64,000 nucleotides of DNA from a virus, in the IMG/VR virus record IMGVR_UViG_3300021091_000016. The stretch is one strand, 5' to 3'. Positions 1-50,219 of the stretch are shown here, in pieces. Below the pieces are notes generated by a model that worked only from the letters and a program-made list of their open reading frames with translations, ran no database searches and was not told where the DNA came from. The position numbers and the translations under genes are program-made. Each line of letters opens with the position of its first letter. The first letter of the stretch is position 1.

Positions 1-202
1 AGATACTCTTAATAAATATTTTTCTATAAAAAATACAAATTATTGCTACTAGCAATAGAAAGTATAAAGTGCCAAATTGATTTAATCATTTTGGTCCAGC
101 TGCAACCCTTAAACTAAGAGAGAAGATTATGTTTACAAACATTCAAAAGATTTACAAGACTACTATAGCATTATACATGTTTATAGTAACACTGGTGCAA
201 AT

Positions 203-475
203 ATGGACATAGTTTATTATCTACCAAACTGGTTAGCAACTACAGTATTTATAATTGGATTCTATTCTAGCGGCGTAATATTGGTAAAAAGCTTTGAAGT
301 GATAACTCATTACTTAAAGTTCAAACAATACCCATTACACCCTATAGAATACAAATACATAAATATTCTAGAGGAAAATAAAATCCTAAAACAAAAAATA
401 TCTCAACATGAAGCTCAACAAGAAGAAATCTTTGAGCAAATGATTGAACAACTTAAAGGAAAAAATTATGAATAA
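203..475 (+). CDS. hypothetical protein, N-terminal TM helix and C-terminal coiled coil
   Basis: 90-aa ORF; hydrophobic residues ~10-30. Confidence 0.55.
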   Translation: MDIVYYLPNWLATTVFIIGFYSSGVILVKSFEVITHYLKFKQYPLHPIEYKYINILEENKILKQKISQHEAQQEEIFEQMIEQLKGKNYE

Positions 476-884
476 GTATACATTTAGTCTACGTTTGACC
501 TCTTCTTATAATCACGTAGAGGTAATCGCAGATGATAGAGATGAAGCATTGTCTTTAGTTTGGGATAGAATCAATGATAAAGAAATCGATGTGGATGACG
601 AAACAATCGAAGTTTACGATGAATCTGAAGAACCAATTGAAGCTCAACAAAGCGGTTATACTCCTATGAGTGCATTAAACGCACAACAACCTCAACCAGA
701 ACTCGATAATGGTTATGTACCTATGGTTGCTGTCTCTAATCAAGACAATGATTTGCTAGCTCAAATTGCAACCCTACTAAGAACTATTGAGGATTGCGCT
801 GCAAAGGTTGAGGAGCTAAGAGCAACTCAAGAGCCAGAAGTATTGCCTAACGGTTATAGACCCTTAGCAAGCAATAAAAGATAG
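468..884 (+). CDS. acidic hypothetical phage protein with three GYxP(M/L) repeats
   Basis: ATG 468 preceded by AAGGA; motifs SGYTPM, NGYVPM, NGYRPL. Confidence 0.65.
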   Translation: MNKYTFSLRLTSSYNHVEVIADDRDEALSLVWDRINDKEIDVDDETIEVYDESEEPIEAQQSGYTPMSALNAQQPQPELDNGYVPMVAVSNQDNDLLAQIATLLRTIEDCAAKVEELRATQEPEVLPNGYRPLASNKR

Positions 885-901
885 GAGTTGAGAGTTTATC
901 T

Positions 902-2542
902 ATGAGTAATGTAAATTATGATAGTAATAGCGAATCAAGGTTTAACTTTATGCATGAACTACCATATATACTTATAGATAAATCTCAATTAGTTCCTCTT
1001 CCTGGCAATTCTTATCATCTAGAAATTAATAAAAGTACATTAGTAGAAACTGCTGGCTTGGTAACAGAGCAAGAAATTTATACAAATATATTCGCTTATT
1101 GTTTTAAAGATGGATCATCTGTACTTCCTTTCGGTGTTATATGCTCCGTAAATGAACAAAAACTGTGCGACGGGAAACTAAGCTTATACTTTAGCTGTAT
1201 AAGAAAAATTGAATCAATAGAAAAGAAATCTGATAGTAAATGTACTTTTTATATGTCAAAAACAACTCTTAAAAAGGACTCCTATCAATTTGTTAAATTA
1301 TTTTTAGAGAATGCGCAGAAAAATCCCAATTTAAAAGACGTGATTGACACAAACGGTTCAATATTCTCAGATATTGTAAATGTCAATCGCTGCCTAGATA
1401 TCATGGAACCTGATAAAGATTTATTAATTAGGTATTTAAGTAGTTCTTCATGGTTCGAAAAGCTATGTGTTGCCGAATATATTCTTTCAGAATACAACTT
1501 AAAATTCGAAACAAATACAACGTACAAAAAAGTAATCAAACAAGATTCTCCTGTATCTGAAAAGATACTAATGGAAAAGAAAAGATTGAGCTCTATACCT
1601 CAATCATCTGCAGAACATGCAGCGACTCAAGATTACTTGCAAATATTAGAAAGCTTACCATTCGGTAAAGAAAATGAAGAAACTATTAATGTAGAAAATA
1701 TTAAGAAAGAACTTAATGAATCTCATTATGGTTTGGAAAAAATTAAAGACGAAATACTAGATTTCTATGCCTTAAAGCAATTGACAGGTGTAGAAGCCTC
1801 TAGTCCTTTTCTCTTAAGTGGGCCTCCAGGTACTGGTAAAACTACAATAGTTAAAGCTATTGCAAAGGCTACAGGTAGAGACTTTATCTCTATTGCTTTG
1901 GGTGGTGTATCTGACGAATCAGAATTTCGTGGACATAGACGCACATATGTAGGCGCTAGACCTGGTAGAATTATTAGCGCACTATCAAAATGTAAATCAA
2001 TGAATCCTATTATCCTACTAGACGAAATTGATAAAATTTCTACTAACGGAAACAAAGGAGACCCATTTGGTGCTTTGTTGGAAATTCTAGACCCAGAACA
2101 AAACAAAGCATTCATTGATAGATTCTTAGAAATTCCTATCGATTTATCTAAATGTACATTCTTTTGTACTGCAAATGATACAAATTATATTCCATTAGCA
2201 GTGATGGACAGATTAGATGAAATAAAATTTGTTGATTATACATCTGAACAAAAAACGCACATTATTAAGAATTACATATTCAATAAAATTAAAACCAATT
2301 ATAATATGTCAAAATACGATATCGAACTAGAGGAAAAGCTAATTAATTTTCTTGCTTGTGAGTATAATTTGCGTAAAATTAATAGAGAGATAGAACGTAT
2401 TTTTAGAAAAAGTGCCTCTAAAATCCTATCAGGAAAATCCGTTAGCTTAGTAACTATGGATGATTATGATGACATGGATACAGAGGATATACCTATTCAA
2501 AAACATAATTCAAATAAAAAGAAAATCGGTTTTTACTTATGA
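902..2542 (+). CDS. lon: Lon-family AAA+ ATPase lacking the C-terminal Ser-Lys protease domain
   Basis: HYGLEKIKDEIL, GPPGTGKT, LGGVSDESEFRGHRRTYVGARPGRII, LLDEIDK, ALLEILDPEQN; ends at 546 aa (..KKKIGFYL) with no protease domain. Confidence 0.9.
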   Translation: MSNVNYDSNSESRFNFMHELPYILIDKSQLVPLPGNSYHLEINKSTLVETAGLVTEQEIYTNIFAYCFKDGSSVLPFGVICSVNEQKLCDGKLSLYFSCIRKIESIEKKSDSKCTFYMSKTTLKKDSYQFVKLFLENAQKNPNLKDVIDTNGSIFSDIVNVNRCLDIMEPDKDLLIRYLSSSSWFEKLCVAEYILSEYNLKFETNTTYKKVIKQDSPVSEKILMEKKRLSSIPQSSAEHAATQDYLQILESLPFGKENEETINVENIKKELNESHYGLEKIKDEILDFYALKQLTGVEASSPFLLSGPPGTGKTTIVKAIAKATGRDFISIALGGVSDESEFRGHRRTYVGARPGRIISALSKCKSMNPIILLDEIDKISTNGNKGDPFGALLEILDPEQNKAFIDRFLEIPIDLSKCTFFCTANDTNYIPLAVMDRLDEIKFVDYTSEQKTHIIKNYIFNKIKTNYNMSKYDIELEEKLINFLACEYNLRKINREIERIFRKSASKILSGKSVSLVTMDDYDDMDTEDIPIQKHNSNKKKIGFYL

Positions 2543-2775
2543 AATTAATATGCTTAGATGTAGATAACTGTGGATATTCCACAATGTCAATAACAGATAA
2601 TTTAGAATACAATATAGATATAAACCAAAACGTTCAAATGTGCCCTGAATGTAAAGACAGTTTAGCTATGTTAGTAGATGATTTCTTTCATTTTGATACT
2701 CTACATCCAGCAGAAAGAAAAAGAATTCAAATTTTAGAATTTGTAAAAGCCTTAGAGGAAAAAATAAAATTGTAA
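2539..2775 (+). CDS. small putative Zn-ribbon protein
   Basis: CLDVDNC...CPEC; ATGA overlap with upstream gene. Confidence 0.55.
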   Translation: MKLICLDVDNCGYSTMSITDNLEYNIDINQNVQMCPECKDSLAMLVDDFFHFDTLHPAERKRIQILEFVKALEEKIKL

Positions 2776-2799
2776 TAAAAACTAAAAGGAGAATTAGCT

Positions 2800-3606
2800 T
2801 TGGAATTTGAAAGCTTTAGCCTTGACGAAGCGTATGATGAGAACCATATAAACTCGTATAAAAAAATAGTATCATTATTAAACAAAATAGATGATAAAAT
2901 TATGAATTATAAATTTATATTATCTGGCGGATTTTTAATTTTTCATATGCTTGAAACACATAACGAAAATCGTAAATACAACGATATAGATTTATTTTTC
3001 GAATCAAAAGAAGACTTCAATAAATTAAATTCATATTTATTAGAGTCTTTCGCTAACAAACAAATTGTATACACAGAATACAAAACAAACAATGCAAACA
3101 CTTATTCCTTTCAAATTGATTCCAAGGATGTCAAGCTTCAATTAATTCAAAGTATTTTTGAATCAAAGGAAAAAACCATAGCTTCCTTTGATTTACAAAA
3201 TTGTCAAATTGCTTTAGATAATAAAGGCGAACTATGTATGAATAAAGATTTTGAGAATCTTTATTGGCGAAAAGAATTAAGAGTAAACAAGCTTGTAATC
3301 AAATATTTAGAGGAACGCGGCCCTGGTTATCTATTTACCTTACTGAATAGATTTAAAAAATATCAATGGAGATATAATTTAATAAATTTAAATGAATCTA
3401 CCATTAAGATAATAGAACAAATAGAACAAGATTATTCTCAAGAGATAACAAAAGATAAAACTATAACATGTGTGATTACAACATCCGGAGAATCAGAAGA
3501 AGAGATTACAAAAAATCTTTTTGAAGAATGGACTAGCTTCTTTATTGCATTCTTTAAAGAATATGTAAAAGAAAGCAACTGGATTATAACTAAAACTCAG
3601 CTTTAA
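2800..3606 (+). CDS. pol-beta-superfamily nucleotidyltransferase (phage poly(A) polymerase/CCA-head-like)
   Basis: LSGGFL...NDIDLFF...LQLI...SFDLQNCQ; TTG start with AGGAG SD. Confidence 0.7.
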   Translation: MEFESFSLDEAYDENHINSYKKIVSLLNKIDDKIMNYKFILSGGFLIFHMLETHNENRKYNDIDLFFESKEDFNKLNSYLLESFANKQIVYTEYKTNNANTYSFQIDSKDVKLQLIQSIFESKEKTIASFDLQNCQIALDNKGELCMNKDFENLYWRKELRVNKLVIKYLEERGPGYLFTLLNRFKKYQWRYNLINLNESTIKIIEQIEQDYSQEITKDKTITCVITTSGESEEEITKNLFEEWTSFFIAFFKEYVKESNWIITKTQL

Positions 3607-3624
3607 ATTGTAAAGGAAATCATT

Positions 3625-6600
3625 ATGATTATCTCCATTCCAAACAAAACTACCTGTATGCCAAAGGAAAAATATGAGCTATTAACAAGCCTTAATAGCT
3701 ATGGTTCACTTAGCAACGAATTCTTAAATGAATTAGAGCAACAAAAGGTTTACAAAATCGATAATGTAAACTCTGTTATCAGTTCAATTGACAGAAGATA
3801 TGCTCTATCAAAAAACTTATTTAACAATTTGACTTATAAATCAAGACTTAGAAATCAATTGTTTTATCAACAGAATAATGCCTATTTAAATAAATTCTTG
3901 ACTGTTTTTATAGTTGAAAATTGGCATGACAAAAACCAAACATACTTAATTGAAAATATAGTTGCTAACTCTTGTACCCCATTTAAAAATCCTTTCATTC
4001 GTAACTTTAATGAATCTAACTTAATGAGATTGCCTAATCATCTATCAGATCAATATGCTAATTGTAATGGCTTAGAAATTAAAGACATCTATAATATGTG
4101 GCGTGCCTCTGATTCCCCAGATGAATTCAATGAAGTGCTTAAGCAATTAGCAAATGAAAATAAAATTAATCCATTTTATATTTATGCTAATGCAAGTGAG
4201 GAAACGATTCGTCAATTAATTGACGAATCAAATTCAGTTACAAAATCTAATATGAGATCAGATACAATCAGCACTTCAGATGTAAAGAGTATCATAAATA
4301 GTGGGGTGCTTGGTTTAAAATATCTCTCTAATTTTATTTATGCATATTTATTATGTATCACTAAAGATTCGTTATTACTAGATGTAGAAAATGAATTGCT
4401 GACTACTAATAATGGAGAGTATAATTTTATAAATTTACTTTTTGATTTTTCTGGAATGAATCAAAATACAATTATGGGTGACCAATTCTCTATTACTTCT
4501 ATGAACTTTGACGGATTTAAATATAGTCCAATTTCAAGCACAGAAGAAAAACAGTACAAGCTTATTAAAAAATATCATCAATATAAAGTCAGCAATGCAA
4601 AGCAAATTGCAACTCAGAATGAACTTCCAGTATTTTCATGCTTTCCAAAAGAGTGGCTAGATTCTATTGGAATTAATTATTTTGAAAATAATATCAAGGT
4701 AGAACCCTCTCTACCTATAGGCTTTGTATACACTAAGCTCGACAATTATATGTTTAATGTTACAGAGACATCTACCTTAGGTGATTTTTCATTTGTAGGA
4801 GATTATACCTTATCTAAGGTTAAAGCTAAAAATGAAATCGTTAATCTTGTAAACGATAGTCAAAAATCCGTAATTGAAATAGTTGAAAGTGCTTTCAACT
4901 TCGAAGTTGAAAAGATTAATTTAAAGGAAGCATTTTTACAAACACTCACATTTACTAATAATAAGATTAAAGCATTAGTGCTTAACAATTTTACTTCTGG
5001 TTCTCAACCATTCAATATGGAAGTAAAACAACTAACAAAAAATCAATTGATTCAATCAAACAATGCATTCGTACCAATTGCATTCAAAACAACAAAGATA
5101 AATCAATTCACAGGCGAAAAAGAAGAAATTTATTTTGTAAGCTTAGTTAACTTCCAGCCATTAAGTAGCTTTAGAAAATATACAAAATCTCAAAGATATC
5201 TCCAATATCTGAATAATTTGATTGAGTATGATTCTATTCAAGACCCATCTATTTATGACCAAATTCTTGTTAAAAGATTTGGAAATACAATTAAATACAA
5301 TTTAGCAAATCAAGAAGTATACGAAAGCTTTGGAGAGGATTTCGTTATGAAAATAACTGAGCAAGACGTAAAAGAAATGCAGGTTATTGATAATGAAAAA
5401 CTAGCTTTTTTAAATGGTAGTTTGAATATAGATGAAAAGTTAATTACTAAATTCAAAGCCTTAAAAGATAAACAAGATATAATCTTAGCTAAATACACTG
5501 AAGAAGATAAAAGACTTACTGATTTAATTGATTCAAGCATTTTAAATGACAGATATATTGAAGATGATAAAATTCAATTACAATCAATTACAGCTAGATT
5601 GAATGAAAGACTTCAACTAAAGGAAACATTTCCTACAAAAATTCAATTACAAGAAAAAGTATCCAGTGACCAAAGAGCTTTATTCGAATCAATCTCTAAA
5701 GAAGTACAAAAGCTAAATGAAATTCAAATAGAAGCTAAAAGAGATGCAATTGAAAATAAAAATTATATTCCCGATAGTTTTTTTACTGGGTTAAAAACAA
5801 GAGGTATTTACATTCAAGAAATTGAGTATCTGGATCAAAATCAAAATACTTTTAAATTTAACGCTAAGAACTTTAATAAGTTGAGTCTTGATAACATTCA
5901 AGATTTCACTCTAAGCTCTTTAAGTTTTATCGTTAACAAACCATTTAAGATTAAAGTAGATGGAGATGCTGCAAATATCATTTACGCAGGACCAATGAAG
6001 GTTCAAATAACAAATTCAAGTATCTCTGTTGGTGCTTTAAATTCATCTACTATCTTAGGCTTTCTTGATAATAGAAACGCAATGGTACATCCACATTCAT
6101 CTCCTATGAATTTGAGTAGCAATTTTGTAGCAACCGAATTCTTTTCATATAGAAGGGGATGCTTAGGCGAATCATCACCATATATTTACAATGCATTTAG
6201 CTCTACGTCTCCTTTAAAGAATGTTTTAGTAAATGCATTCATTTGGTTATCTAGTGCAAATAGTTCAGATCATTGGGGCAGAAATTACAAATTCTTCCCA
6301 AGATATGGCAGTACATCACTAGTTAACCTAGAAGAGGAAGCAATTAACTTAATTACCATCAATGAATATATTGAATCAGAGGAACCATTATTAAAACCTA
6401 AAAAACAATGTGAACATGAATATGAAAATTCTATATGTATTCATTGTGGATTAGAATGTGTTGACCATAATTACGATTACGATGGTATTTGTACTATATG
6501 TGGGCATTACAATTCACGTTATGATGATTCAGATGAAGAAGATGAAATCTATGACGAAGAGATAACACCAGAACAAGTAAATACAGCTCCAAATGTATAT

Positions 6601-6636
6601 ACACCCTACTCTCCATTAACAAACAATAATAACTAA
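3625..6636 (+). CDS. large protein with coiled coil, C-terminal prokaryotic E2-like (Ubl-conjugating) domain and Cys/His Zn knuckles
   Basis: H822-P-H824 ... G-C846-LG...W...N..D.WG pattern typical of bacterial E2-like folds; directly upstream of JAB, E1 and Ubl; tail CEHEYENSICIHCG/CVDHNYDYDGICTICG. Confidence 0.65.
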   Translation: MIISIPNKTTCMPKEKYELLTSLNSYGSLSNEFLNELEQQKVYKIDNVNSVISSIDRRYALSKNLFNNLTYKSRLRNQLFYQQNNAYLNKFLTVFIVENWHDKNQTYLIENIVANSCTPFKNPFIRNFNESNLMRLPNHLSDQYANCNGLEIKDIYNMWRASDSPDEFNEVLKQLANENKINPFYIYANASEETIRQLIDESNSVTKSNMRSDTISTSDVKSIINSGVLGLKYLSNFIYAYLLCITKDSLLLDVENELLTTNNGEYNFINLLFDFSGMNQNTIMGDQFSITSMNFDGFKYSPISSTEEKQYKLIKKYHQYKVSNAKQIATQNELPVFSCFPKEWLDSIGINYFENNIKVEPSLPIGFVYTKLDNYMFNVTETSTLGDFSFVGDYTLSKVKAKNEIVNLVNDSQKSVIEIVESAFNFEVEKINLKEAFLQTLTFTNNKIKALVLNNFTSGSQPFNMEVKQLTKNQLIQSNNAFVPIAFKTTKINQFTGEKEEIYFVSLVNFQPLSSFRKYTKSQRYLQYLNNLIEYDSIQDPSIYDQILVKRFGNTIKYNLANQEVYESFGEDFVMKITEQDVKEMQVIDNEKLAFLNGSLNIDEKLITKFKALKDKQDIILAKYTEEDKRLTDLIDSSILNDRYIEDDKIQLQSITARLNERLQLKETFPTKIQLQEKVSSDQRALFESISKEVQKLNEIQIEAKRDAIENKNYIPDSFFTGLKTRGIYIQEIEYLDQNQNTFKFNAKNFNKLSLDNIQDFTLSSLSFIVNKPFKIKVDGDAANIIYAGPMKVQITNSSISVGALNSSTILGFLDNRNAMVHPHSSPMNLSSNFVATEFFSYRRGCLGESSPYIYNAFSSTSPLKNVLVNAFIWLSSANSSDHWGRNYKFFPRYGSTSLVNLEEEAINLITINEYIESEEPLLKPKKQCEHEYENSICIHCGLECVDHNYDYDGICTICGHYNSRYDDSDEEDEIYDEEITPEQVNTAPNVYTPYSPLTNNNN

Positions 6637-6647
6637 GGATTAAAGAT

Positions 6648-7772
6648 ATGAAATCTGTAAATTCATTTAAAATCTTAACACAATCATCTGTAGAACCTTT
6701 TATCTCTATGGATTATGATTTAATGCAACAAATTCAACATATTGTTGAAATCGCACCAAAAGAAGCTCAATGGTTTCATCTAATGGAACAAATTGATTCA
6801 GCAGAATTTAGAATCTCAGAGATGTTTATTCCAGAACAAATCTGTAGTTCCGTAGAAGTAGATACTGATAGTCAAATGATGGTACGCTTTTGGAATGAAC
6901 TAAAAGAAAAATATGGCGTAGTAGAAGCCTCTAATAAGTTAACTGTAATGACTGTTTGGTGTCACAGTCATCACAATATGGCGCCTAGTCCTAGCGCTCA
7001 AGATAATACTCAATTCTATCAATTAGTTAAACAACAGAAGGATGCTGGGACTAATAAACCAGTACTTATGTTTATCTTTAATAAACGTAATGAATATTAT
7101 TCTAGATTATGGGATCCAAAAACTAATTTAGTATATGAAGGCTTAGATATCGTTTATACTCATTACGATATGTCTTGGATTGACGCAGAAGCTAAAAAGA
7201 AATTTAAAGAACCACCAATCGTACCTAAGAGTTTTTTAGGTACAACTCCAGCAAATACAAAAGCAACATCTTATTATTGGACGAATCCATTAAAAGATGT
7301 ACCAGCATATAGCTATACTGGAAAAGCAAATGGCAATCATTTAACTGCAAGCACATCATCAAAAATGGCTATTTCAGATTGTTTTGGAGTGACTTACAAT
7401 GAATTCAATGTAATCACCCAACCAATGGCAGATGAATTTGCAAGCTATGTTTCAGATGAATTAGAATCTCAAGAAAAATATATTTTGGCTTCGTTATTAA
7501 GAAAAGATAAAAACTTTTACAATAAAGCTTTAGAAGCAAAGAATAAGAAAATCGCTCCTAAACCATTCAAAGAAACAATTATCAAAGCTATTACCTCTAA
7601 TAAAATGACAATTGGATTACTAGAATGCATTTTGACAAATGTATTTGAAATGTATGACCAATTATTAATAGAGGATAAAGAAAGCTTTGATGTCTGGACA
7701 ACAGATGTTATCGATATGATGGAAGAAACACTAACAGAACCAAAACCTCAATATACCTTGTTCTCTAAATAA
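6648..7772 (+). CDS. JAB/JAMM (MPN+) metalloprotease, putative Ubl-processing/deconjugating enzyme
   Basis: PKEAQW (E39) and WCHSHHNMAPSPSAQD = H106-x-H108-x7-S116-xx-D119. Confidence 0.88.
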   Translation: MKSVNSFKILTQSSVEPFISMDYDLMQQIQHIVEIAPKEAQWFHLMEQIDSAEFRISEMFIPEQICSSVEVDTDSQMMVRFWNELKEKYGVVEASNKLTVMTVWCHSHHNMAPSPSAQDNTQFYQLVKQQKDAGTNKPVLMFIFNKRNEYYSRLWDPKTNLVYEGLDIVYTHYDMSWIDAEAKKKFKEPPIVPKSFLGTTPANTKATSYYWTNPLKDVPAYSYTGKANGNHLTASTSSKMAISDCFGVTYNEFNVITQPMADEFASYVSDELESQEKYILASLLRKDKNFYNKALEAKNKKIAPKPFKETIIKAITSNKMTIGLLECILTNVFEMYDQLLIEDKESFDVWTTDVIDMMEETLTEPKPQYTLFSK

Positions 7773-7781
7773 AGGATAAAA

Positions 7782-8471
7782 ATGTCTGTATCATTTCTTA
7801 GACACAGTGCATTCTTTGGGCCAGAGGATGCAAATCAATATGTATTAAATATCATTGGAGTAGGTGCAACAGGCTCTTGGATTGCTATGCTAGCTGCCAG
7901 AATGGGTTGGCACAAGTTTAGAGTATGGGATTTAGATATTGTAGAATCTCACAATTTACCTAATCAAGCATATACCCATGATGATATTGGTAAGAAAAAA
8001 GTAATCGCGCTTAAGGAACAACTACTTAGATTCAATCCAGAAATTGAAATTGAAACACATGATTATTTCTTTGAATCAGAAAAGCATAAAGAATTACTAG
8101 ACGGGCCAGTTATCATTACTGTTGATTCACTATCTGCAAGAAAGGATATTGCAGAAGCAATTAAAGGTAATTGGAATGTCATGCATGCATTTGAAACTCG
8201 TATGGGATTTACTCATGCAGAAATCAATTACCTAGATTGTTTAAACATCCAATCAGTAGAAAACTTTCAAAACTTACTTAAAAGCGATTCTGAAGTAACT
8301 GAAGCTGCATGTAATGAAAGAATTATCACAACTCTCACTTGCCAAGTTGCAGCAACTGTGGTACATTATTTATGTGCTTTAGTTACCAAAGATAGAAACA
8401 AGAACGAAGTACAAATTAGAAACAAAACTATTTTTACAAATACACCCACACTTTCCGTGTTTGGTATGTAG
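7782..8471 (+). CDS. ThiF/MoeB/E1-like adenylyltransferase (Ubl-activating enzyme)
   Basis: IIGVGATGS, DLDIVESHNLPNQ, DIGKKKV, VDSLSARK, ETRMG; candidate catalytic C177 (AAC). Confidence 0.92.
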   Translation: MSVSFLRHSAFFGPEDANQYVLNIIGVGATGSWIAMLAARMGWHKFRVWDLDIVESHNLPNQAYTHDDIGKKKVIALKEQLLRFNPEIEIETHDYFFESEKHKELLDGPVIITVDSLSARKDIAEAIKGNWNVMHAFETRMGFTHAEINYLDCLNIQSVENFQNLLKSDSEVTEAACNERIITTLTCQVAATVVHYLCALVTKDRNKNEVQIRNKTIFTNTPTLSVFGM

Positions 8472-8480
8472 GAGAAACAA

Positions 8481-8708
8481 ATGCAAGAACAAGAGTTCAA
8501 ATTACAAGATGAATTAACTCAATTGAGTCAAACATTAGCAGCCTTGCAAATTGATGCTCAGAAGTTTGATGATGGTAATGGTGCGGCTGGTAGACGTGCT
8601 AGGTCTTACTTAGCAAGTTTAAGAACAAGTATGCAGTCATTGCGTTTCAAGATTCAAGAAGTAAAAAATCAAAGAATTGCACAAAAGAAAACCCAAGTTA
8701 CTGAATAA
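8481..8708 (+). CDS. histone H1-like Hc1-family small helical protein
   Basis: DAQKFDDGNGAAGRRARSYL...LRFKIQEVKN resembles the Hc1-like consensus. Confidence 0.7.
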   Translation: MQEQEFKLQDELTQLSQTLAALQIDAQKFDDGNGAAGRRARSYLASLRTSMQSLRFKIQEVKNQRIAQKKTQVTE

Positions 8709-8717
8709 GGAAATAAA

Positions 8718-8933
8718 ATGAGAAACATTACATTAGTAATCGTGCCAGGCACAGGCGCAAAACAAATCCAGGTAGAAGACACAATGACCGTAGCAGAGCT
8801 TGTTGCTCGTGAATCTCTATTTGGTAGAGACATCATTGTAAATGGTGTTGGAGTACAAGCCACACAATTTAATACTCAAACCTTAGCAGGTGCAATTGAA
8901 GTATTTGCTACAGGGAGTGTTAAGGGCAATTAA
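8718..8933 (+). CDS. single ubiquitin-like (beta-grasp) protein
   Basis: 71 aa, beta-grasp-type pattern (TMTVAEL, IIVNG), ends FATGSVKG-N; downstream of E1/JAB. Confidence 0.82.
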   Translation: MRNITLVIVPGTGAKQIQVEDTMTVAELVARESLFGRDIIVNGVGVQATQFNTQTLAGAIEVFATGSVKGN

Positions 8934-9083
8934 ATGGATTGGTGGAATAAAAATTCTGACGATCCAATTATTAATCTAATAGTAGGTGTTGGATTTATTA
9001 TCTATGCAATCATTGTAAGCCTATATAATCCGCTATATCTTATTATTTATTGCTTATTAACTATAATTTACTATTTGATTTAA
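8934..9083 (+). CDS. 49-aa hydrophobic membrane peptide (not in ORF track)
   Basis: Starts right after the Ubl stop; MDWWNKNSDDPIINLIVGVGFIIYAIIVSLYNPLYLIIYCLLTIIYYLI. Confidence 0.5.
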   Translation: MDWWNKNSDDPIINLIVGVGFIIYAIIVSLYNPLYLIIYCLLTIIYYLI

Positions 9084-9136
9084 AAGATAAAAAATAAAAA
9101 GATTTAATCGATTACCTAATACAAAAGGATAATCTT

Positions 9137-9550
9137 ATGTCTACAACAGTAATTGTTATCAAAGGCAACTCTTCTCAAAGCTTATTAAATAGAATTGCAC
9201 AAGCTTTAACAGATGAAGATAGAAATGCTCAAACTACAGAAATCAAACAAAATCTAGTAAGAGCTTTTTCAGATGCAACTCAATTAAAAACAGAAGAAAA
9301 TAAAAAAGAACGCAAAAAGCATGAAATGACTTATAGATTTGATTCAAATCAAGAAAAGCTAGTAAGGGCGTTTATCAATAAGAACCCAAGCTTTACTTTT
9401 AATCAAGTCTGTAACTTTTTAAGGAATGCAGGATATGAAAAGGTATATTTCAGAGATTTAAAAATTTGTTTAACAAAGTTTAATGCTACCTGTAGTATCG
9501 ATTCAATAACCAGAAAGCATACCTGGATTGTAAAAAATGTCAGAAAATAG
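9137..9550 (+). CDS. hypothetical basic protein, possible winged-helix DNA-binding C-terminus
   Basis: 137-aa ORF with AAGGA SD; function inferred only. Confidence 0.55.
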   Translation: MSTTVIVIKGNSSQSLLNRIAQALTDEDRNAQTTEIKQNLVRAFSDATQLKTEENKKERKKHEMTYRFDSNQEKLVRAFINKNPSFTFNQVCNFLRNAGYEKVYFRDLKICLTKFNATCSIDSITRKHTWIVKNVRK

Positions 9551-9691: not shown

Positions 9692-10558
9692 ATGACTACA
9701 CGTAATCTTACCCTCGTTGTTGTCCCTGGTACTGGCGCACGTTCTATCTCTGTAGATACTACTATGACCGTTGCTGATCTAGTTTGTCGTGAGAATTTAC
9801 ACGGTAGAGATATCATTATTAACGGTGTTGGTGTCAATCCACAATCCTGGAATACCACAACACTTCAAGATGCAGTAGAAGTATTTGCAACTGGTAGTGT
9901 TAAAGGTAATGTTGATAGAACTGTAACTTTAGTAGTAGTTCCAGGTACAGGTGCTAGACAAACAACAATTCCTTCTCAAATGACCGTAGCAGATTTTGTT
10001 TGTAGAGAGAATCTCCATGGCCGTGATATTATTATTAACGGTGTAGGTTGCGCACCAACACAATGGAATACTACAACTTTAGATGAAGCTGTTGAGATTT
10101 TCGCAACAGGCTCTGTGAAAGGTAATGTTCCACAAACTGGAGTACTTGTTGTAGTTCCTGGAACTGGAGCAAGACAAGTAAGCTTTGATTCAGAATCTAC
10201 AATTGCTGATTTCGTATGTGCTAATAATCTACATGGTAGAGATATCATTTTAGATGGCGTTGGCGTTAGTCCTACACAATGGAATAGTACTCAATTAGGT
10301 CAAGCAAGAGAAATCTTTGCAACCGGCAGTGTGAAGGGTAATGCTACTCGTACTGCAACATTAGTTGTTGTGCCAGGTACTGGTGCAAGACAGGTACAAA
10401 TTGATACAGAAATGACTGTAGCTGATTTTGTATGTCGTGAGAACTTACATGGACGTGACATTATTCTTAATGGCGTAGGTGTAGCTCCACAGCAATGGAA
10501 TCAGACAACACTAAATGACACTGTAGAAATCTTTGCTACAGGTTCTGTTAAAGGTAAT
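9692..10558 (+). repeat. four in-frame ~216-bp tandem Ubl-coding repeats
   Basis: Units 9692-9910, 9911-10126, 10127-10342, 10343-10558; conserved motifs use different synonymous codons. Confidence 0.92.
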
Positions 10559-10843
10559 GGCGCTGAAGGGTTTATTGAAGTGACTTATGGAAATGATGCA
10601 AAAACTTGCTTTAAGAGCTTAGTAGATACAGCTATTTACAAGCATGGTCATAATCCTTATAGCGGTACTATTGCTACTGTATCAAGCTTTAAACTTGAAG
10701 AAACAGAGTTTCAAAATGAAGAAGCTGCATTGGCTTATGCAGATGATAAAATCGAGGACTTAGAGAAAAGAGAATGCAGAGCAGTAAGCTTTGTAGAAAA
10801 TAACAAAAGAGGCTTTGTCTTTTATGGTTGGGCTGCCTGTTAA
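9692..10843 (+). CDS. tetra-ubiquitin-like polyprotein (4 Ubl repeats) fused to a 94-aa C-terminal domain
   Basis: Four 72-73 aa repeats each ending FATGSVKGN, paralogous to 8718..8933, then GAEGF...YSGTIAT...FYGWAAC. Confidence 0.85.
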   Translation: MTTRNLTLVVVPGTGARSISVDTTMTVADLVCRENLHGRDIIINGVGVNPQSWNTTTLQDAVEVFATGSVKGNVDRTVTLVVVPGTGARQTTIPSQMTVADFVCRENLHGRDIIINGVGCAPTQWNTTTLDEAVEIFATGSVKGNVPQTGVLVVVPGTGARQVSFDSESTIADFVCANNLHGRDIILDGVGVSPTQWNSTQLGQAREIFATGSVKGNATRTATLVVVPGTGARQVQIDTEMTVADFVCRENLHGRDIILNGVGVAPQQWNQTTLNDTVEIFATGSVKGNGAEGFIEVTYGNDAKTCFKSLVDTAIYKHGHNPYSGTIATVSSFKLEETEFQNEEAALAYADDKIEDLEKRECRAVSFVENNKRGFVFYGWAAC

Positions 10844-19319: not shown

Positions 19320-19712
19320 ATGCAAAGTAAGAAAGAAACTATCGAATCCTTTTTGCAAAAAGGAAAGACTATAATTTATGTAGATTCAAGAAAAGAAAAT
19401 GTAATGCTACCTGATTATTTAATGGGGCTGATTCAAGTAAAGCTATCCTTAAGCTACAAGTATCCTCATAACGTTTTTCTATTAACAGATGAATTTTTAA
19501 AAATTGATTTATCATTTAATCAAAACAAATTTGTATGTGACATTCCTTTAGATGCAATTTATCTAGTAGCGTCATCAGATGATGTATCTGATTTGGTTAC
19601 ATTCTTTGAATCAGTGCCAGAAATCTTTATTCAGATTGCTGAGGATATACAAACCTTAAAAGAATCTACAAATGAAATCGATTTTGAAGGATTTTTTAAA
19701 AGCCATGATTGA
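19320..19712 (+). CDS. sspB: SspB-like ClpXP adaptor (stringent starvation protein B)
   Basis: IYVDSRKENVMLPDYL...LSLSY...LSFNQNKFVCDIPLDAIY follows the SspB pattern. Confidence 0.7.
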   Translation: MQSKKETIESFLQKGKTIIYVDSRKENVMLPDYLMGLIQVKLSLSYKYPHNVFLLTDEFLKIDLSFNQNKFVCDIPLDAIYLVASSDDVSDLVTFFESVPEIFIQIAEDIQTLKESTNEIDFEGFFKSHD

Positions 19713-49155: not shown

Positions 49156-49570
49156 GTCTACCTGGAAAAATCAATTCCATATATATGAATCTGCTTCTGA
49201 CTTTCATAATAAAGTCAGAGAGATATTTGCCACAGATAATTATTTTAAGCAAATCCAATGCTTTCAAGAAGTACCTGTATCAAATTTAGTTTCAGATTAT
49301 AAAAACAATATGGAAGCGGTTGACTGGTATATCGATTCTTTAAATGTAGTAATCGAGCTGCATGGCGAGCAACATTACAAAGCTACAGGATTTGGTAACG
49401 AGTCGTATAATGAAAAGCTTGTTAATTTCAATAATATACGTTATAGAGATAATAAAAAGAAGACAGCGTTAATAGAAAGTGGATATACTTATATAGAAAT
49501 TCCGTATAAGTTAAAATCTAAATTGACTGCTGAATTTATAAAAGAATTAATCTATAGCTATGGAGAATGA
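49136..49570 (+). CDS. Vsr/DUF559-like endonuclease
   Basis: VDWYI...IELHGEQHY...RDNKKK...IEIPY. Confidence 0.75.
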   Translation: MAPGSNRSTWKNQFHIYESASDFHNKVREIFATDNYFKQIQCFQEVPVSNLVSDYKNNMEAVDWYIDSLNVVIELHGEQHYKATGFGNESYNEKLVNFNNIRYRDNKKKTALIESGYTYIEIPYKLKSKLTAEFIKELIYSYGE

Positions 49571-49571
49571 C

Positions 49572-50219
49572 ATGAGCGATTTAAAAGCTTTAGAGGATTT
49601 ATTAAAATCTGATGAATCTGAATTTAAACATTTTTGGGGACCTGCAGATATTAAGTACTTTGGTTCTAGTAATCGAACAATTGCTTTTTTTGAAGGTATC
49701 GAAAAAGAATCAGCATTAGTTTTAATATCTCAGTTATATGAATTAGATAAGTTTTCTGACGAACCTATCTATCTAATTCTAAATACAGAAGGTGGAGACG
49801 TAGATTCGTCCTTAGCAATACTAGATTGTATTAAAGGCTTAAACTCTCCAGTAATTTGTTTAGCTACTGGGATTTGTGCTTCTGGTGGATTGATAGTACT
49901 TTCTGCTTGTGATTACAGAATTGCAACAGAAAACTGTTTATTCTTTTATCATCAGCCAATAATGTCTAGTATAGATGTAACCTCTACTAGTGAAATTAAA
50001 TCGGTAGATACTCTTTACACTTATTACCAAATCAAATTAGATCAAATACTTAAAGACAAGTCTAAAATGAATAAAAAGAAATGGTCTGAAAGCTTTGAAG
50101 GCAAGACATCTTTCTATTTTGATGCAAATCAAGCTTTAGACTTTGGGCTTATAGATTTGATTGACATACCTCCTCCAAAAACTCAAAAGATTAAAATTAA
50201 AAGGATTAAAAAGAAATGA
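49572..50219 (+). CDS. clpP: ClpP-family protease subunit
   Basis: LNTEGGDV, GICASGG (catalytic Ser), FYHQP (His), ALDFGLID. Confidence 0.85.
   Translation: MSDLKALEDLLKSDESEFKHFWGPADIKYFGSSNRTIAFFEGIEKESALVLISQLYELDKFSDEPIYLILNTEGGDVDSSLAILDCIKGLNSPVICLATGICASGGLIVLSACDYRIATENCLFFYHQPIMSSIDVTSTSEIKSVDTLYTYYQIKLDQILKDKSKMNKKKWSESFEGKTSFYFDANQALDFGLIDLIDIPPPKTQKIKIKRIKKK

Follow-up and report, generated by a model that had tools for sequence, protein, structure and literature searches.

Among the AAA+ proteases, Lon and FtsH carry their own protease, and ClpX, ClpA and ClpC dock on the ClpP peptidase through IGF-type loops. LonA enzymes (e.g., E. coli Lon, B. subtilis LonA, Meiothermus taiwanensis Lon and human LONP1) consist, in collinear order, of an N-terminal domain, a long helical region and an AAA+ module, and carry a Ser-Lys protease domain. 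Here we describe an ATPase encoded at positions 902 to 2,542 of a 64,000-nt stretch of viral DNA (hereafter, the window; IMG/VR record IMGVR_UViG_3300021091_000016), which is part of an uncultured phage genome of ~152 kb (152,265 bp). The ATPase shares the collinear N-terminal, helical and AAA+ regions of LonA, has the same pore loop (RRTY-V/I-G), Walker motifs, sensors and Arg finger, and is 38-40% identical to the solved mitochondrial Lons over the AAA+ part; however, the family to which it belongs stops three residues into the first strand of the protease domain, and nearly all of its members carry a Phi-G-F motif (Phi, a hydrophobic residue) on a short C-terminal tail. The gene stands at the head of an operon for the conjugation of a ubiquitin-like protein (Ubl), and we tentatively propose, by analogy with the Clp ATPases, that this protease-less LonA unfoldase recruits a peptidase, most probably a ClpP-type ring, via its Phi-G-F tail.

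The likeness to ClpX, ClpA and ClpC, whose loops read IGF, IGL or VGF, is that a hexameric AAA+ ATPase bears, on the side facing the protease, a flexible element with a Phi-G-F motif, as can be seen from the E. coli ClpX loop (...GSGIGFGA...) and the phage ATPase tail (KKKIGFYL). However, the Clp motif is on an internal loop and the phage motif on a C-terminal tail, and the AAA+ module is that of the Lon clade and not of Clp/Hsp100, scoring 23.8 bits against AAA_2 (cut-off, 27) and 27.5 bits against ClpA (cut-off, 993). Furthermore, compared with the Clp ATPases that partner ClpP, the phage ATPase shares a genome with a ClpP gene but neither forms an operon nor co-varies with it. A mirror image is provided by LonC of Meiothermus taiwanensis, presented in PMC3391209 as a Lon-like protease without ATP-powered unfolding; LonC kept the protease and lost the ATPase activity, whereas the phage family kept the ATPase and lost the protease.

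Among Ubl-guided pathways, Mpa/ARC-Pup-20S, SAMP-proteasome and eukaryotic ubiquitin-26S/Cdc48 resemble the phage locus, in which an AAA+ unfoldase is likewise encoded with a Ubl, a Ubl-activating enzyme (E1) and a JAB-type peptidase; the archaeal SAMP-proteasome is described as a Ubl-guided unfoldase-protease pathway in PMC4895103. Dissimilar from these pathways, the phage peptidase would be ClpP, and the unfoldase is dispensable in sister phages. The Bil, Bub and type II CBASS (cyclic-oligonucleotide-based antiphage signaling system) Cap2/Cap3 operons share E1, E2-like, JAB and Ubl genes with the phage cassette, which is phage-borne and adds a nucleotidyltransferase (NTase)-like protein; in this combination of an NTase with E1, E2-like and JAB genes, the cassette is reminiscent of type II CBASS, in which a CD-NTase accompanies Cap2/Cap3. 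In PMC11601603 and PMC1779556, as far as a look-up of terms shows, no AAA+ or ClpP component of such operons is mentioned, and a literature search returned nothing on truncated Lon ATPases with IGF tails, on phage ClpP partners or on AAA+ components of Ubl operons.

The gene has two candidate starts, the ATG at 902 and an ATG at 950 (Met17); its relatives start near Met17, and residues 1-12 are disordered in the AlphaFold2 model of the ATPase, which has a mean predicted local distance difference test score (pLDDT) of 84. The protein matched PF00004 in Pfam (8e-26), TIGR00763 in NCBIfam (residues 213-534 aligned to positions 266-590 of 795; 345 bits, cut-off 608), phrog_15585 in PHROGs (positions 237-572 of 793) and Lons in the PDB (reaching 3e-76). 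In a 25-member family alignment (29-76% identity), Walker A (G307-T314), R346-Y349 of pore loop 1, D374/E375 of Walker B, N425 (sensor-1), R437 (Arg finger) and R491 (sensor-2) are all invariant. Because the Walker, pore-loop, sensor and Arg-finger residues are invariant across the family, the ATPase is predicted to be a working translocase and not a decayed one; pore loop 1 with Tyr349 is, we assume by homology to LonA, the substrate-translocating loop. The first 210 residues have no Pfam match, and PF02190 (LON_substr_bdg), found in relatives, is absent here. Nonetheless, hhalign aligned family residues 11-547 collinearly with full-length LonA columns 6-601 of 808 (probability 100%), and the top Foldseek matches to the model were whole LonA chains over ~590-600 columns. 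An earlier note on this DNA, made from the letters and open reading frames (ORFs), had described a Lon-like N-region and an intact AAA+ module; the collinear alignment and whole-chain structural matches bear out the former, and the TIGR00763 and PF00004 matches with the invariant catalytic and pore residues bear out the latter.

Two side observations concern the ATPase gene itself. In G002 (192.5 kb), a related record, the gene is interrupted within the invariant pore-loop codons (…EFRG / HRRTY…) by an insert of ~0.9 kb (L009:10427-11340), which encodes a 246-aa ORF with no Pfam match and gave a group I intron match (RF00028, 11117-11299, E=5e-10) of 45.3 bits against a gathering score of 50. 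An antisense ORF of 116 aa inside the gene (1765-2115, minus strand) had tblastn matches in G001 and G002; these matches arise only because the ORF mirrors the conserved coding strand, and it is not a gene.

The earlier note had also stated that the protein has no Ser-Lys protease domain, and Pfam agrees, as Lon_C (PF05362) is absent from it. Because Lon_C is absent and the TIGR00763 score (345) is below 608, with the match ending at the start of the protease domain, the ATPase is a Lon derivative and not a Lon protease. Nor was PF05362 found in G001 (79% complete) or G002 (100% complete), two related records that bear the ATPase. Furthermore, a hidden Markov model (HMM) of the Lon protease domain, derived from an alignment of 15 full-length Lons and scoring four positive controls at 228-268 bits, gave no match at E<=10 in the six frames of the window, G001, G002, and the ATPase-less genomes G029 and G031. 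A separately encoded Lon protease domain, the finding that the earlier note said would speak against its reading, was thus encountered neither in the window nor in the two related ATPase-bearing genomes. In a scan of cellular genome contigs, none of 65 cellular Lons with the pore-loop motif was protease-less, all being ordinary Lons; the family is a phage-restricted LonA derivative.

The ATPase ends in ...NSNKKKIGFYL, and its last 18 residues (529-546), IGFYL included, are disordered in the AlphaFold2 model (pLDDT 40-50), so the charged linker and KKKIGFYL terminus reported in the earlier note stand, on a plus-strand ORF of 546 aa. The best 120 database matches include 90 protease-less homologs of 500-660 aa, and each of these has an [IVLMF]-G-F motif within its last 45 residues; the two residues before the motif are mostly K/R, and the chain ends exactly at F in 28 of the 90. 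A profile search was also made of 1.84 billion 50%-identity representatives, and 84 of the top 150 matches lacked the Lon protease domain. Phi-G-F is present in 78 of these 84 and Phi-G-Y in 2 more; of the other 4, P0220, P0237 and P0243 look like truncated fragments of ordinary Lons, leaving P0201 (ending ...RKFF) as the one apparent family member without Phi-G-F. G543 and F544 are invariant in the 25-member alignment, down to 29% identity. Conservation of the tail, a point raised in the earlier note, is therefore very strong for the IGF motif (90/90; 78/84 representatives). Across the family the motif is encoded by all four Gly codons, five Ile/Val codons and both Phe codons; this synonymous variation indicates that selection acts on the protein, and it rules out an origin of the motif at the nucleotide level, be it a ribosome-binding site or a gene overlap.

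The residues after F vary; several members (F-GGD, F-SGG, F-GGR) owe them to a GGAGG that precedes the ATG of the next gene by a few bases. Since the post-F residues are often just a ribosome-binding site, the functional unit would end at F, and a free carboxylate would not be needed there, as with the internal IGF loops of the Clp ATPases. The loci L192, L193 and L197 are examples in which the ribosome-binding site of the downstream gene is read as an ATPase C-terminal extension (SGG, GGD and GGR). The earlier note had seen in the tail an HbYX pattern as well, the C-terminal motif of proteasomal ATPases; however, F-Y-L is found only in the window and P0001, with F-C-L in P0002, and an HbYX-type C-terminus was rejected, as most members end at F or bear unrelated extensions. 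The tail is fairly likely to be a docking peptide, because a disordered segment would not keep an invariant G-F down to ~30% identity unless there were a pocket to bind it.

When the family is aligned with full-length Lons, each residue of K-I-G-F shares its column with a residue of the first protease-domain strand (D/E-V-G-I/V-V-x-G-L-A-W-T), where E. coli Lon reads ...NRVGQVTGLAWT. From these alignments, the family is a Lon cut three residues into the protease domain, with Phi-G inherited from Lon, and Phe and the basic patch derived. In LonA structures, the side of the ring that faces the protease is the side of substrate exit. As it lies on the first protease strand, the motif would sit where a peptidase would, below the substrate exit of the ring.

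Members of the family were found in eleven IMG/VR records (G001-G011), on which, with other IMG/VR records, the co-occurrence counts rest; related loci were found via a Walker-A-free alignment and a custom degenerate pattern. The earlier note had placed the gene about 1 kb upstream of a Ubl locus. In the window, the E2-like gene starts 1.08 kb downstream, the JAB and ThiF genes were confirmed by Pfam, and the cassette genes are tightly packed, with gaps of 9-25 bases or overlaps. No plus-strand terminator was found in window positions 1-9200, and the 9-mer GACGAGACG, a proposed phage promoter word, is absent from the window. The co-occurrence of ATPase and Ubl genes held throughout, as a same-strand ThiF-type E1 lies 4.2-6.5 kb downstream of the ATPase in 11/11 records and 5.2 kb downstream in the window (12/12 in all). 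By BLAST, the gene order is ATPase, NTase-like protein of ~270 aa, E2-like, JAB, E1, Ubl(s) and PhoH (L001, L009, G007, G010 and the window), and members of both deep subfamilies of the ATPase occupy the slot at the cassette head.

The reverse test gave a different picture. Among 35 viral loci with related E1s, six have E1s 52-57% identical together with full 10-kb upstream flanks (L296, L298, L300, L302, L303 and L305), and no ATPase was found within these flanks, nor in the whole records G026 and G028-G032. Two of these ATPase-less records, G029 (161.8 kb, with terminal repeats) and G031 (158.5 kb), are 100% complete. The slot is cleanly empty, with the flanking genes kept, in the five loci checked (L296, L298, L300, L302 and L303). 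The ATPase is thus an accessory first gene of the cassette, fixed in place when present and dispensable, because it is missing from complete sister phages that have retained the Ubl cassette as well as ClpP.

In the explanation that we favor, the gene encodes a LonA descendant that kept its substrate-binding N-domain and a fully functional hexameric AAA+ translocase, and lost the Ser-Lys protease domain three residues into the first beta-strand. The strand remnant then evolved from acidic-Phi-G-Phi to basic-basic-Phi-G-F on a flexible tail of ~20 residues, which would emerge from the ring on its substrate-exit side. As the product of the optional first gene of the Ubl conjugation operon, the ATPase would unfold selected proteins, plausibly those marked by the Ubl system, and pass them to a separate peptidase recruited via Phi-G-F; that the substrates are Ubl-marked is plausible solely on account of operon membership. 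The recruit would most probably be a ClpP-type ring, of host or phage, as the IGF/IGL loops of ClpX, ClpA and ClpC suggest by analogy, and such a ring is the best single candidate for the target of the tail, although a tentative one.

Should this hold, the family would be a natural re-pairing experiment, in which a Lon motor without its protease turned a residual strand into a Clp-type tripeptide. Binding of the tail to ClpP would represent a natural rewiring of unfoldase-peptidase partnerships, and it would offer phages a route to redirect the ClpP of the host. If the tail binds another partner, the family is still an unannotated, well-defined and phage-restricted Lon derivative with an unexplained invariant motif, and the fixed slot at the head of the Ubl operon makes a coupling of Ubl tagging to unfolding or degradation directly testable.

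With regard to the candidate partner, the earlier note had listed a ClpP with catalytic Ser/His starting at 49572; the gene is confirmed, with its start at 49560. The protein scored 83.6 bits against PF00574 (cut-off, 20.2) and 47.7 bits against TIGR00493 (cut-off, 308.6), and it matched head-maturation and ATP-dependent-protease PHROGs about equally. When 13 phage-type ClpPs were aligned to E. coli ClpP, Ser97 and His122 were found to be kept in all 13, with Ser/His present in the window ClpP. At the positions that we take to form the IGF-binding cleft of E. coli ClpP (Y60, Y62, F82, I90, M92, F112, L114 and L189), the window ClpP has Y60, I62, G82, L90, T92, I112, T114 and D189, so that some hydrophobic character is left; the 13 phage-type ClpPs as a group are no more than partly hydrophobic there. 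The phage-type ClpPs are a subfamily of their own (the window, L082, L083, L182-L184, L186 and L330-L335), and those of the window, L082, L083 and L186 have a Lys-rich C-terminal tail. Canonical ClpPs of ~267 bits, with complete triad and gating segment, are encoded in G007 (G007:C1:41331-41867, L181) and G010 (G010:C1:40242-40781, L180), 6 and 15 kb upstream of the ATPase on the same strand, with many small genes between. As a separate observation, G002 has a second, different ClpP paralog (G002:C1:120289-120807; L081:1462-2067; PF00574, 1.7e-27) 5 kb from the phage-type one. ClpX was found in none of the 11 family-bearing records, and an E. coli ClpX query gave no match in the window at E<=0.01, in line with the earlier note, which had remarked on the missing ClpX.

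A role of the window ClpP in head maturation is unlikely, because the gene lies in a replication block and, in the complete genome G031, ~60 kb from the head genes. Its neighbors in the window encode a primase-helicase, an HNH endonuclease, a RusA/PDDEXK resolvase, a Cas4-like nuclease and a GMP-reductase-type enzyme, and the block is kept in G001 and G002; in G031, the portal (phrog_9232, 5e-53) and major head protein are at 121-128 kb and ClpP at 61.8 kb. The profile phrog_94 matched only ClpP loci. The G031 head module (G031:C1:121023-128074, L368) consists of the portal, an 894-aa DUF5824 protein, an unmatched 422-aa protein and the major head protein (phrog_3922). The 894-aa protein, which occupies the portal-to-capsid slot of G031, where a protease or scaffold is usually encoded, has no recognizable protease domain. 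The S77, S78, Gp23 and HK97-capsid HMMs gave no match, and PF03420 and PF07068 were silent in control genomes too and are hence uninformative.

ClpP was found in 8 of the 11 family-bearing records and in the window (9/12), the three records without it being 23%, 29% and 50% complete; accordingly, every ATPase-bearing record more than 60% complete has ClpP. By comparison, ClpP was present in only 3 of 14 records with full-length Lons and in none of 7 phages with distant E1s. The co-occurrence of ATPase and ClpP, also raised in the earlier note, is therefore frequent among ATPase-bearing phages; however, the same 75% was obtained among ATPase-less ones (6/8). Equal frequencies with and without the ATPase are compatible with an ATPase that needs ClpP and lend no support to it, and ClpP is a trait of the phage group, independent of the ATPase. 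The ClpPs of most ATPase-less phages are polar at positions 82, 90 and 189 (Q, H/Q and S/T), and those of ATPase-bearing phages are aliphatic at 90 and, with the exception of the window Asp, at 189. This gives a hint that pocket residues track the presence of the ATPase, in one to three events, but a hint only, because the tree is compatible with a single loss event.

Several observations weigh against recruitment of ClpP by the ATPase. The 6 of 8 closely related ATPase-less records that have ClpP leave only two records without it, and these are 15% and 21% complete; moreover, G029 and G031 have ClpP and the Ubl cassette but no ATPase, and no other unfoldase was found in either genome. In most records, 36-48 kb separate the ATPase gene from the ClpP gene, and the two share no operon, including in G007 and G010 (6 and 15 kb). 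When all window ORFs were compared by tblastn with two ATPase-bearing and two ATPase-less genomes, only the ATPase tracked the presence of the ATPase. The phage-type ClpPs depart from the canonical enzyme, as Asp171 is Ser in the window ClpP and S/A/N throughout the 13 sequences, a W-x-P...YFG motif stands in place of the N-terminal gating segment, and the equivalents of E. coli F82, M92 and L114 are small or polar in the window ClpP. No dedicated prohead protease was recognized by HMM, which makes a head-maturation role for ClpP somewhat less improbable. Because Phi-G was inherited from Lon, the likeness to the Clp IGF is less improbable by chance. Lastly, every family member belongs to a single group of collinear phages, and the Ubl synteny may partly reflect shared ancestry; the association of ATPase and cassette, though perfect, therefore does not represent many independent events.

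The independence of ClpP from the ATPase, the lack of linkage between their genes and the non-canonical pocket of the phage ClpP are equally what would be expected if the ATPase were a Cdc48/p97-like Ubl segregase that works without a peptidase and docks its tail on the E2-like, JAB, NTase-like or E1 protein, and the place of the ATPase at the cassette head in 12/12 phages, with tight gene packing and no plus-strand terminator, fits such a function. However, ATPase-less phages have the cassette proteins just as often and in similarly conserved form, and hence there is no co-variation on this side either; we know of no E1, E2 or JAB pocket for a Phi-G-F peptide; and the tail would exit on the substrate-exit face, the natural site for a peptidase. 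A segregase of this kind is thus unlikely, but it deserves to be kept in mind.

The clean loss of an accessory gene from sister phages, with nothing else altered, and the collinearity of the phages, by which the adjacency to the cassette may be historical, would also suit a stand-alone unfoldase, chaperone or host-takeover factor, the tail of which acts within the molecule (in autoinhibition or hexamer assembly) or on a host protein. This we consider quite unlikely, as the conservation of G-F on a disordered tail, without exception down to ~30% identity, points to a specific binding pocket and both deep subfamilies keep the gene in its slot at the head of the Ubl operon.

Recruitment of a ClpP-type ring is to be distinguished from a complete machine of the kind suggested by the earlier note, a phage analogue of the ubiquitin-proteasome system in which the cassette tags proteins, the LonA-derived unfoldase recognizes the tag and the IGF motif feeds a host or phage ClpP ring. 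If true, this would be a natural Lon-AAA/ClpP chimera. The protease-less Lon unfoldase proposed in the note stands and its link to the Ubl locus was strengthened; however, the HbYX motif, the SspB adaptor (see below) and the specific pairing with the phage ClpP were unsupported or weakened, and the machine as a whole appears distinctly improbable.

It is also conceivable that the tail is a pseudo-Ubl terminus, trimmed by JAB after Gly and activated by E1, so that the ATPase itself is conjugated in a CBASS-like manner. The Ubls end in ...VKG-N, i.e., Gly plus one residue, as 28 of 90 ATPases end in Gly plus F, an NTase-like protein is also in the cassette, and type II CBASS offers a precedent, in which Cap2/Cap3 reportedly act on the C-terminus of the CD-NTase and conjugate it. 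However, Gly is always followed by F in the ATPase and always by N in the Ubls, so that the two sites differ, the residues that precede Gly are different as well (KK-I versus S-V-K), many members have long post-F extensions that merely encode a ribosome-binding site, and E1s usually recognize the Ubl fold and not a tail alone; this reading is very improbable. The weakest alternative, a split Lon with a protease domain encoded by a separate gene and completed in trans by the Phi-G-F strand, draws on the coincidence of the motif with the first protease strand and is hardly credible, being rejected within the sequences searched (the window, G001, G002, G029 and G031), where neither the protease-domain HMM, in any frame, nor PF05362, in G001 and G002, found such a domain.

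The SspB-like adaptor that the earlier note had placed at 19320..19712 is unsupported. This orphan ORF of 130 aa had no match in Pfam, NCBIfam, PHROGs or PDB sequences; two homologs were found among 5.8 billion clusters, and the four related genomes compared lack it. Its structural model is unusable (pLDDT 42), and a pairwise comparison with the substrate-binding domain of E. coli SspB gave only a marginal in-register match (24% over 63 residues, E=0.027). With no family or PDB match, the ORF is too weak a candidate to be assigned to any machine. The remaining features of the window that were considered are collected in Table 1.

Table 1. Positions of the ATPase gene, its parts, the Ubl cassette and the ClpP gene in the window
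Feature	Position	Strand	Basis
Protease-less LonA-derived AAA+ unfoldase gene (predicted), 546 aa	902..2542	+	Pfam, NCBIfam, PHROGs, hhalign, AlphaFold2, Foldseek
Diverged LonA N-terminal domain: beta-rich residues 17-118, helical residues 125-208	950..1525	+	hhalign, AlphaFold2 secondary structure, Foldseek
Walker A GPPGTGKT, residues 307-314	1820..1843	+	Family alignment
Pore loop 1 RRTYVG, invariant R346, R347, T348, Y349	1937..1954	+	Family alignment
Walker B LLDEIDK, with D374 and E375	2015..2035	+	Family alignment
Charged disordered linker after lid domain, residues 528-541, basic patch KKK at end	2483..2524	+	pLDDT 40-50, alignment
I542-G543-F544, family Phi-G-F motif	2525..2533	+	Alignments; position matches first Lon protease beta-strand
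Non-conserved Y-L extension and TGA stop, overlapping ATG of next ORF (ATGA)	2534..2542	+	Tail comparison
Four-Cys zinc-ribbon-like ORF, 78 aa, two Cys pairs (C..C…C..C), translationally coupled to ATPase	2539..2775	+	Sequence only
NTase-like protein, 268 aa	2800..3606	+	phrog_4400, 1e-11; phrog_1614 'nucleotidyltransferase', 5e-4; GG…DIDLF by eye
Large E2-like protein (putative)	3625-6636	+	Label carried over
JAB peptidase	6648-7772	+	Pfam Prok-JAB
ThiF-type E1	7782-8471	+	Pfam ThiF
Single Ubl	8718-8933	+	Units end ...SVKGN, unlike ATPase tail
Four-unit poly-Ubl	9692-10843	+	Units end ...SVKGN, unlike ATPase tail
Phage-type ClpP-family serine peptidase, replication block, candidate partner	49560..50219	+	PF00574, 2e-23

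Within the cassette, the NTase-like gene (2800-3606) is kept as the next cassette gene in the synteny of all relatives, with or without the ATPase. Homologs of the 78-aa four-Cys ORF occur elsewhere in the cassette in two records, namely G010, where an 80-aa version lies between the NTase-like and E2-like genes, and G031.

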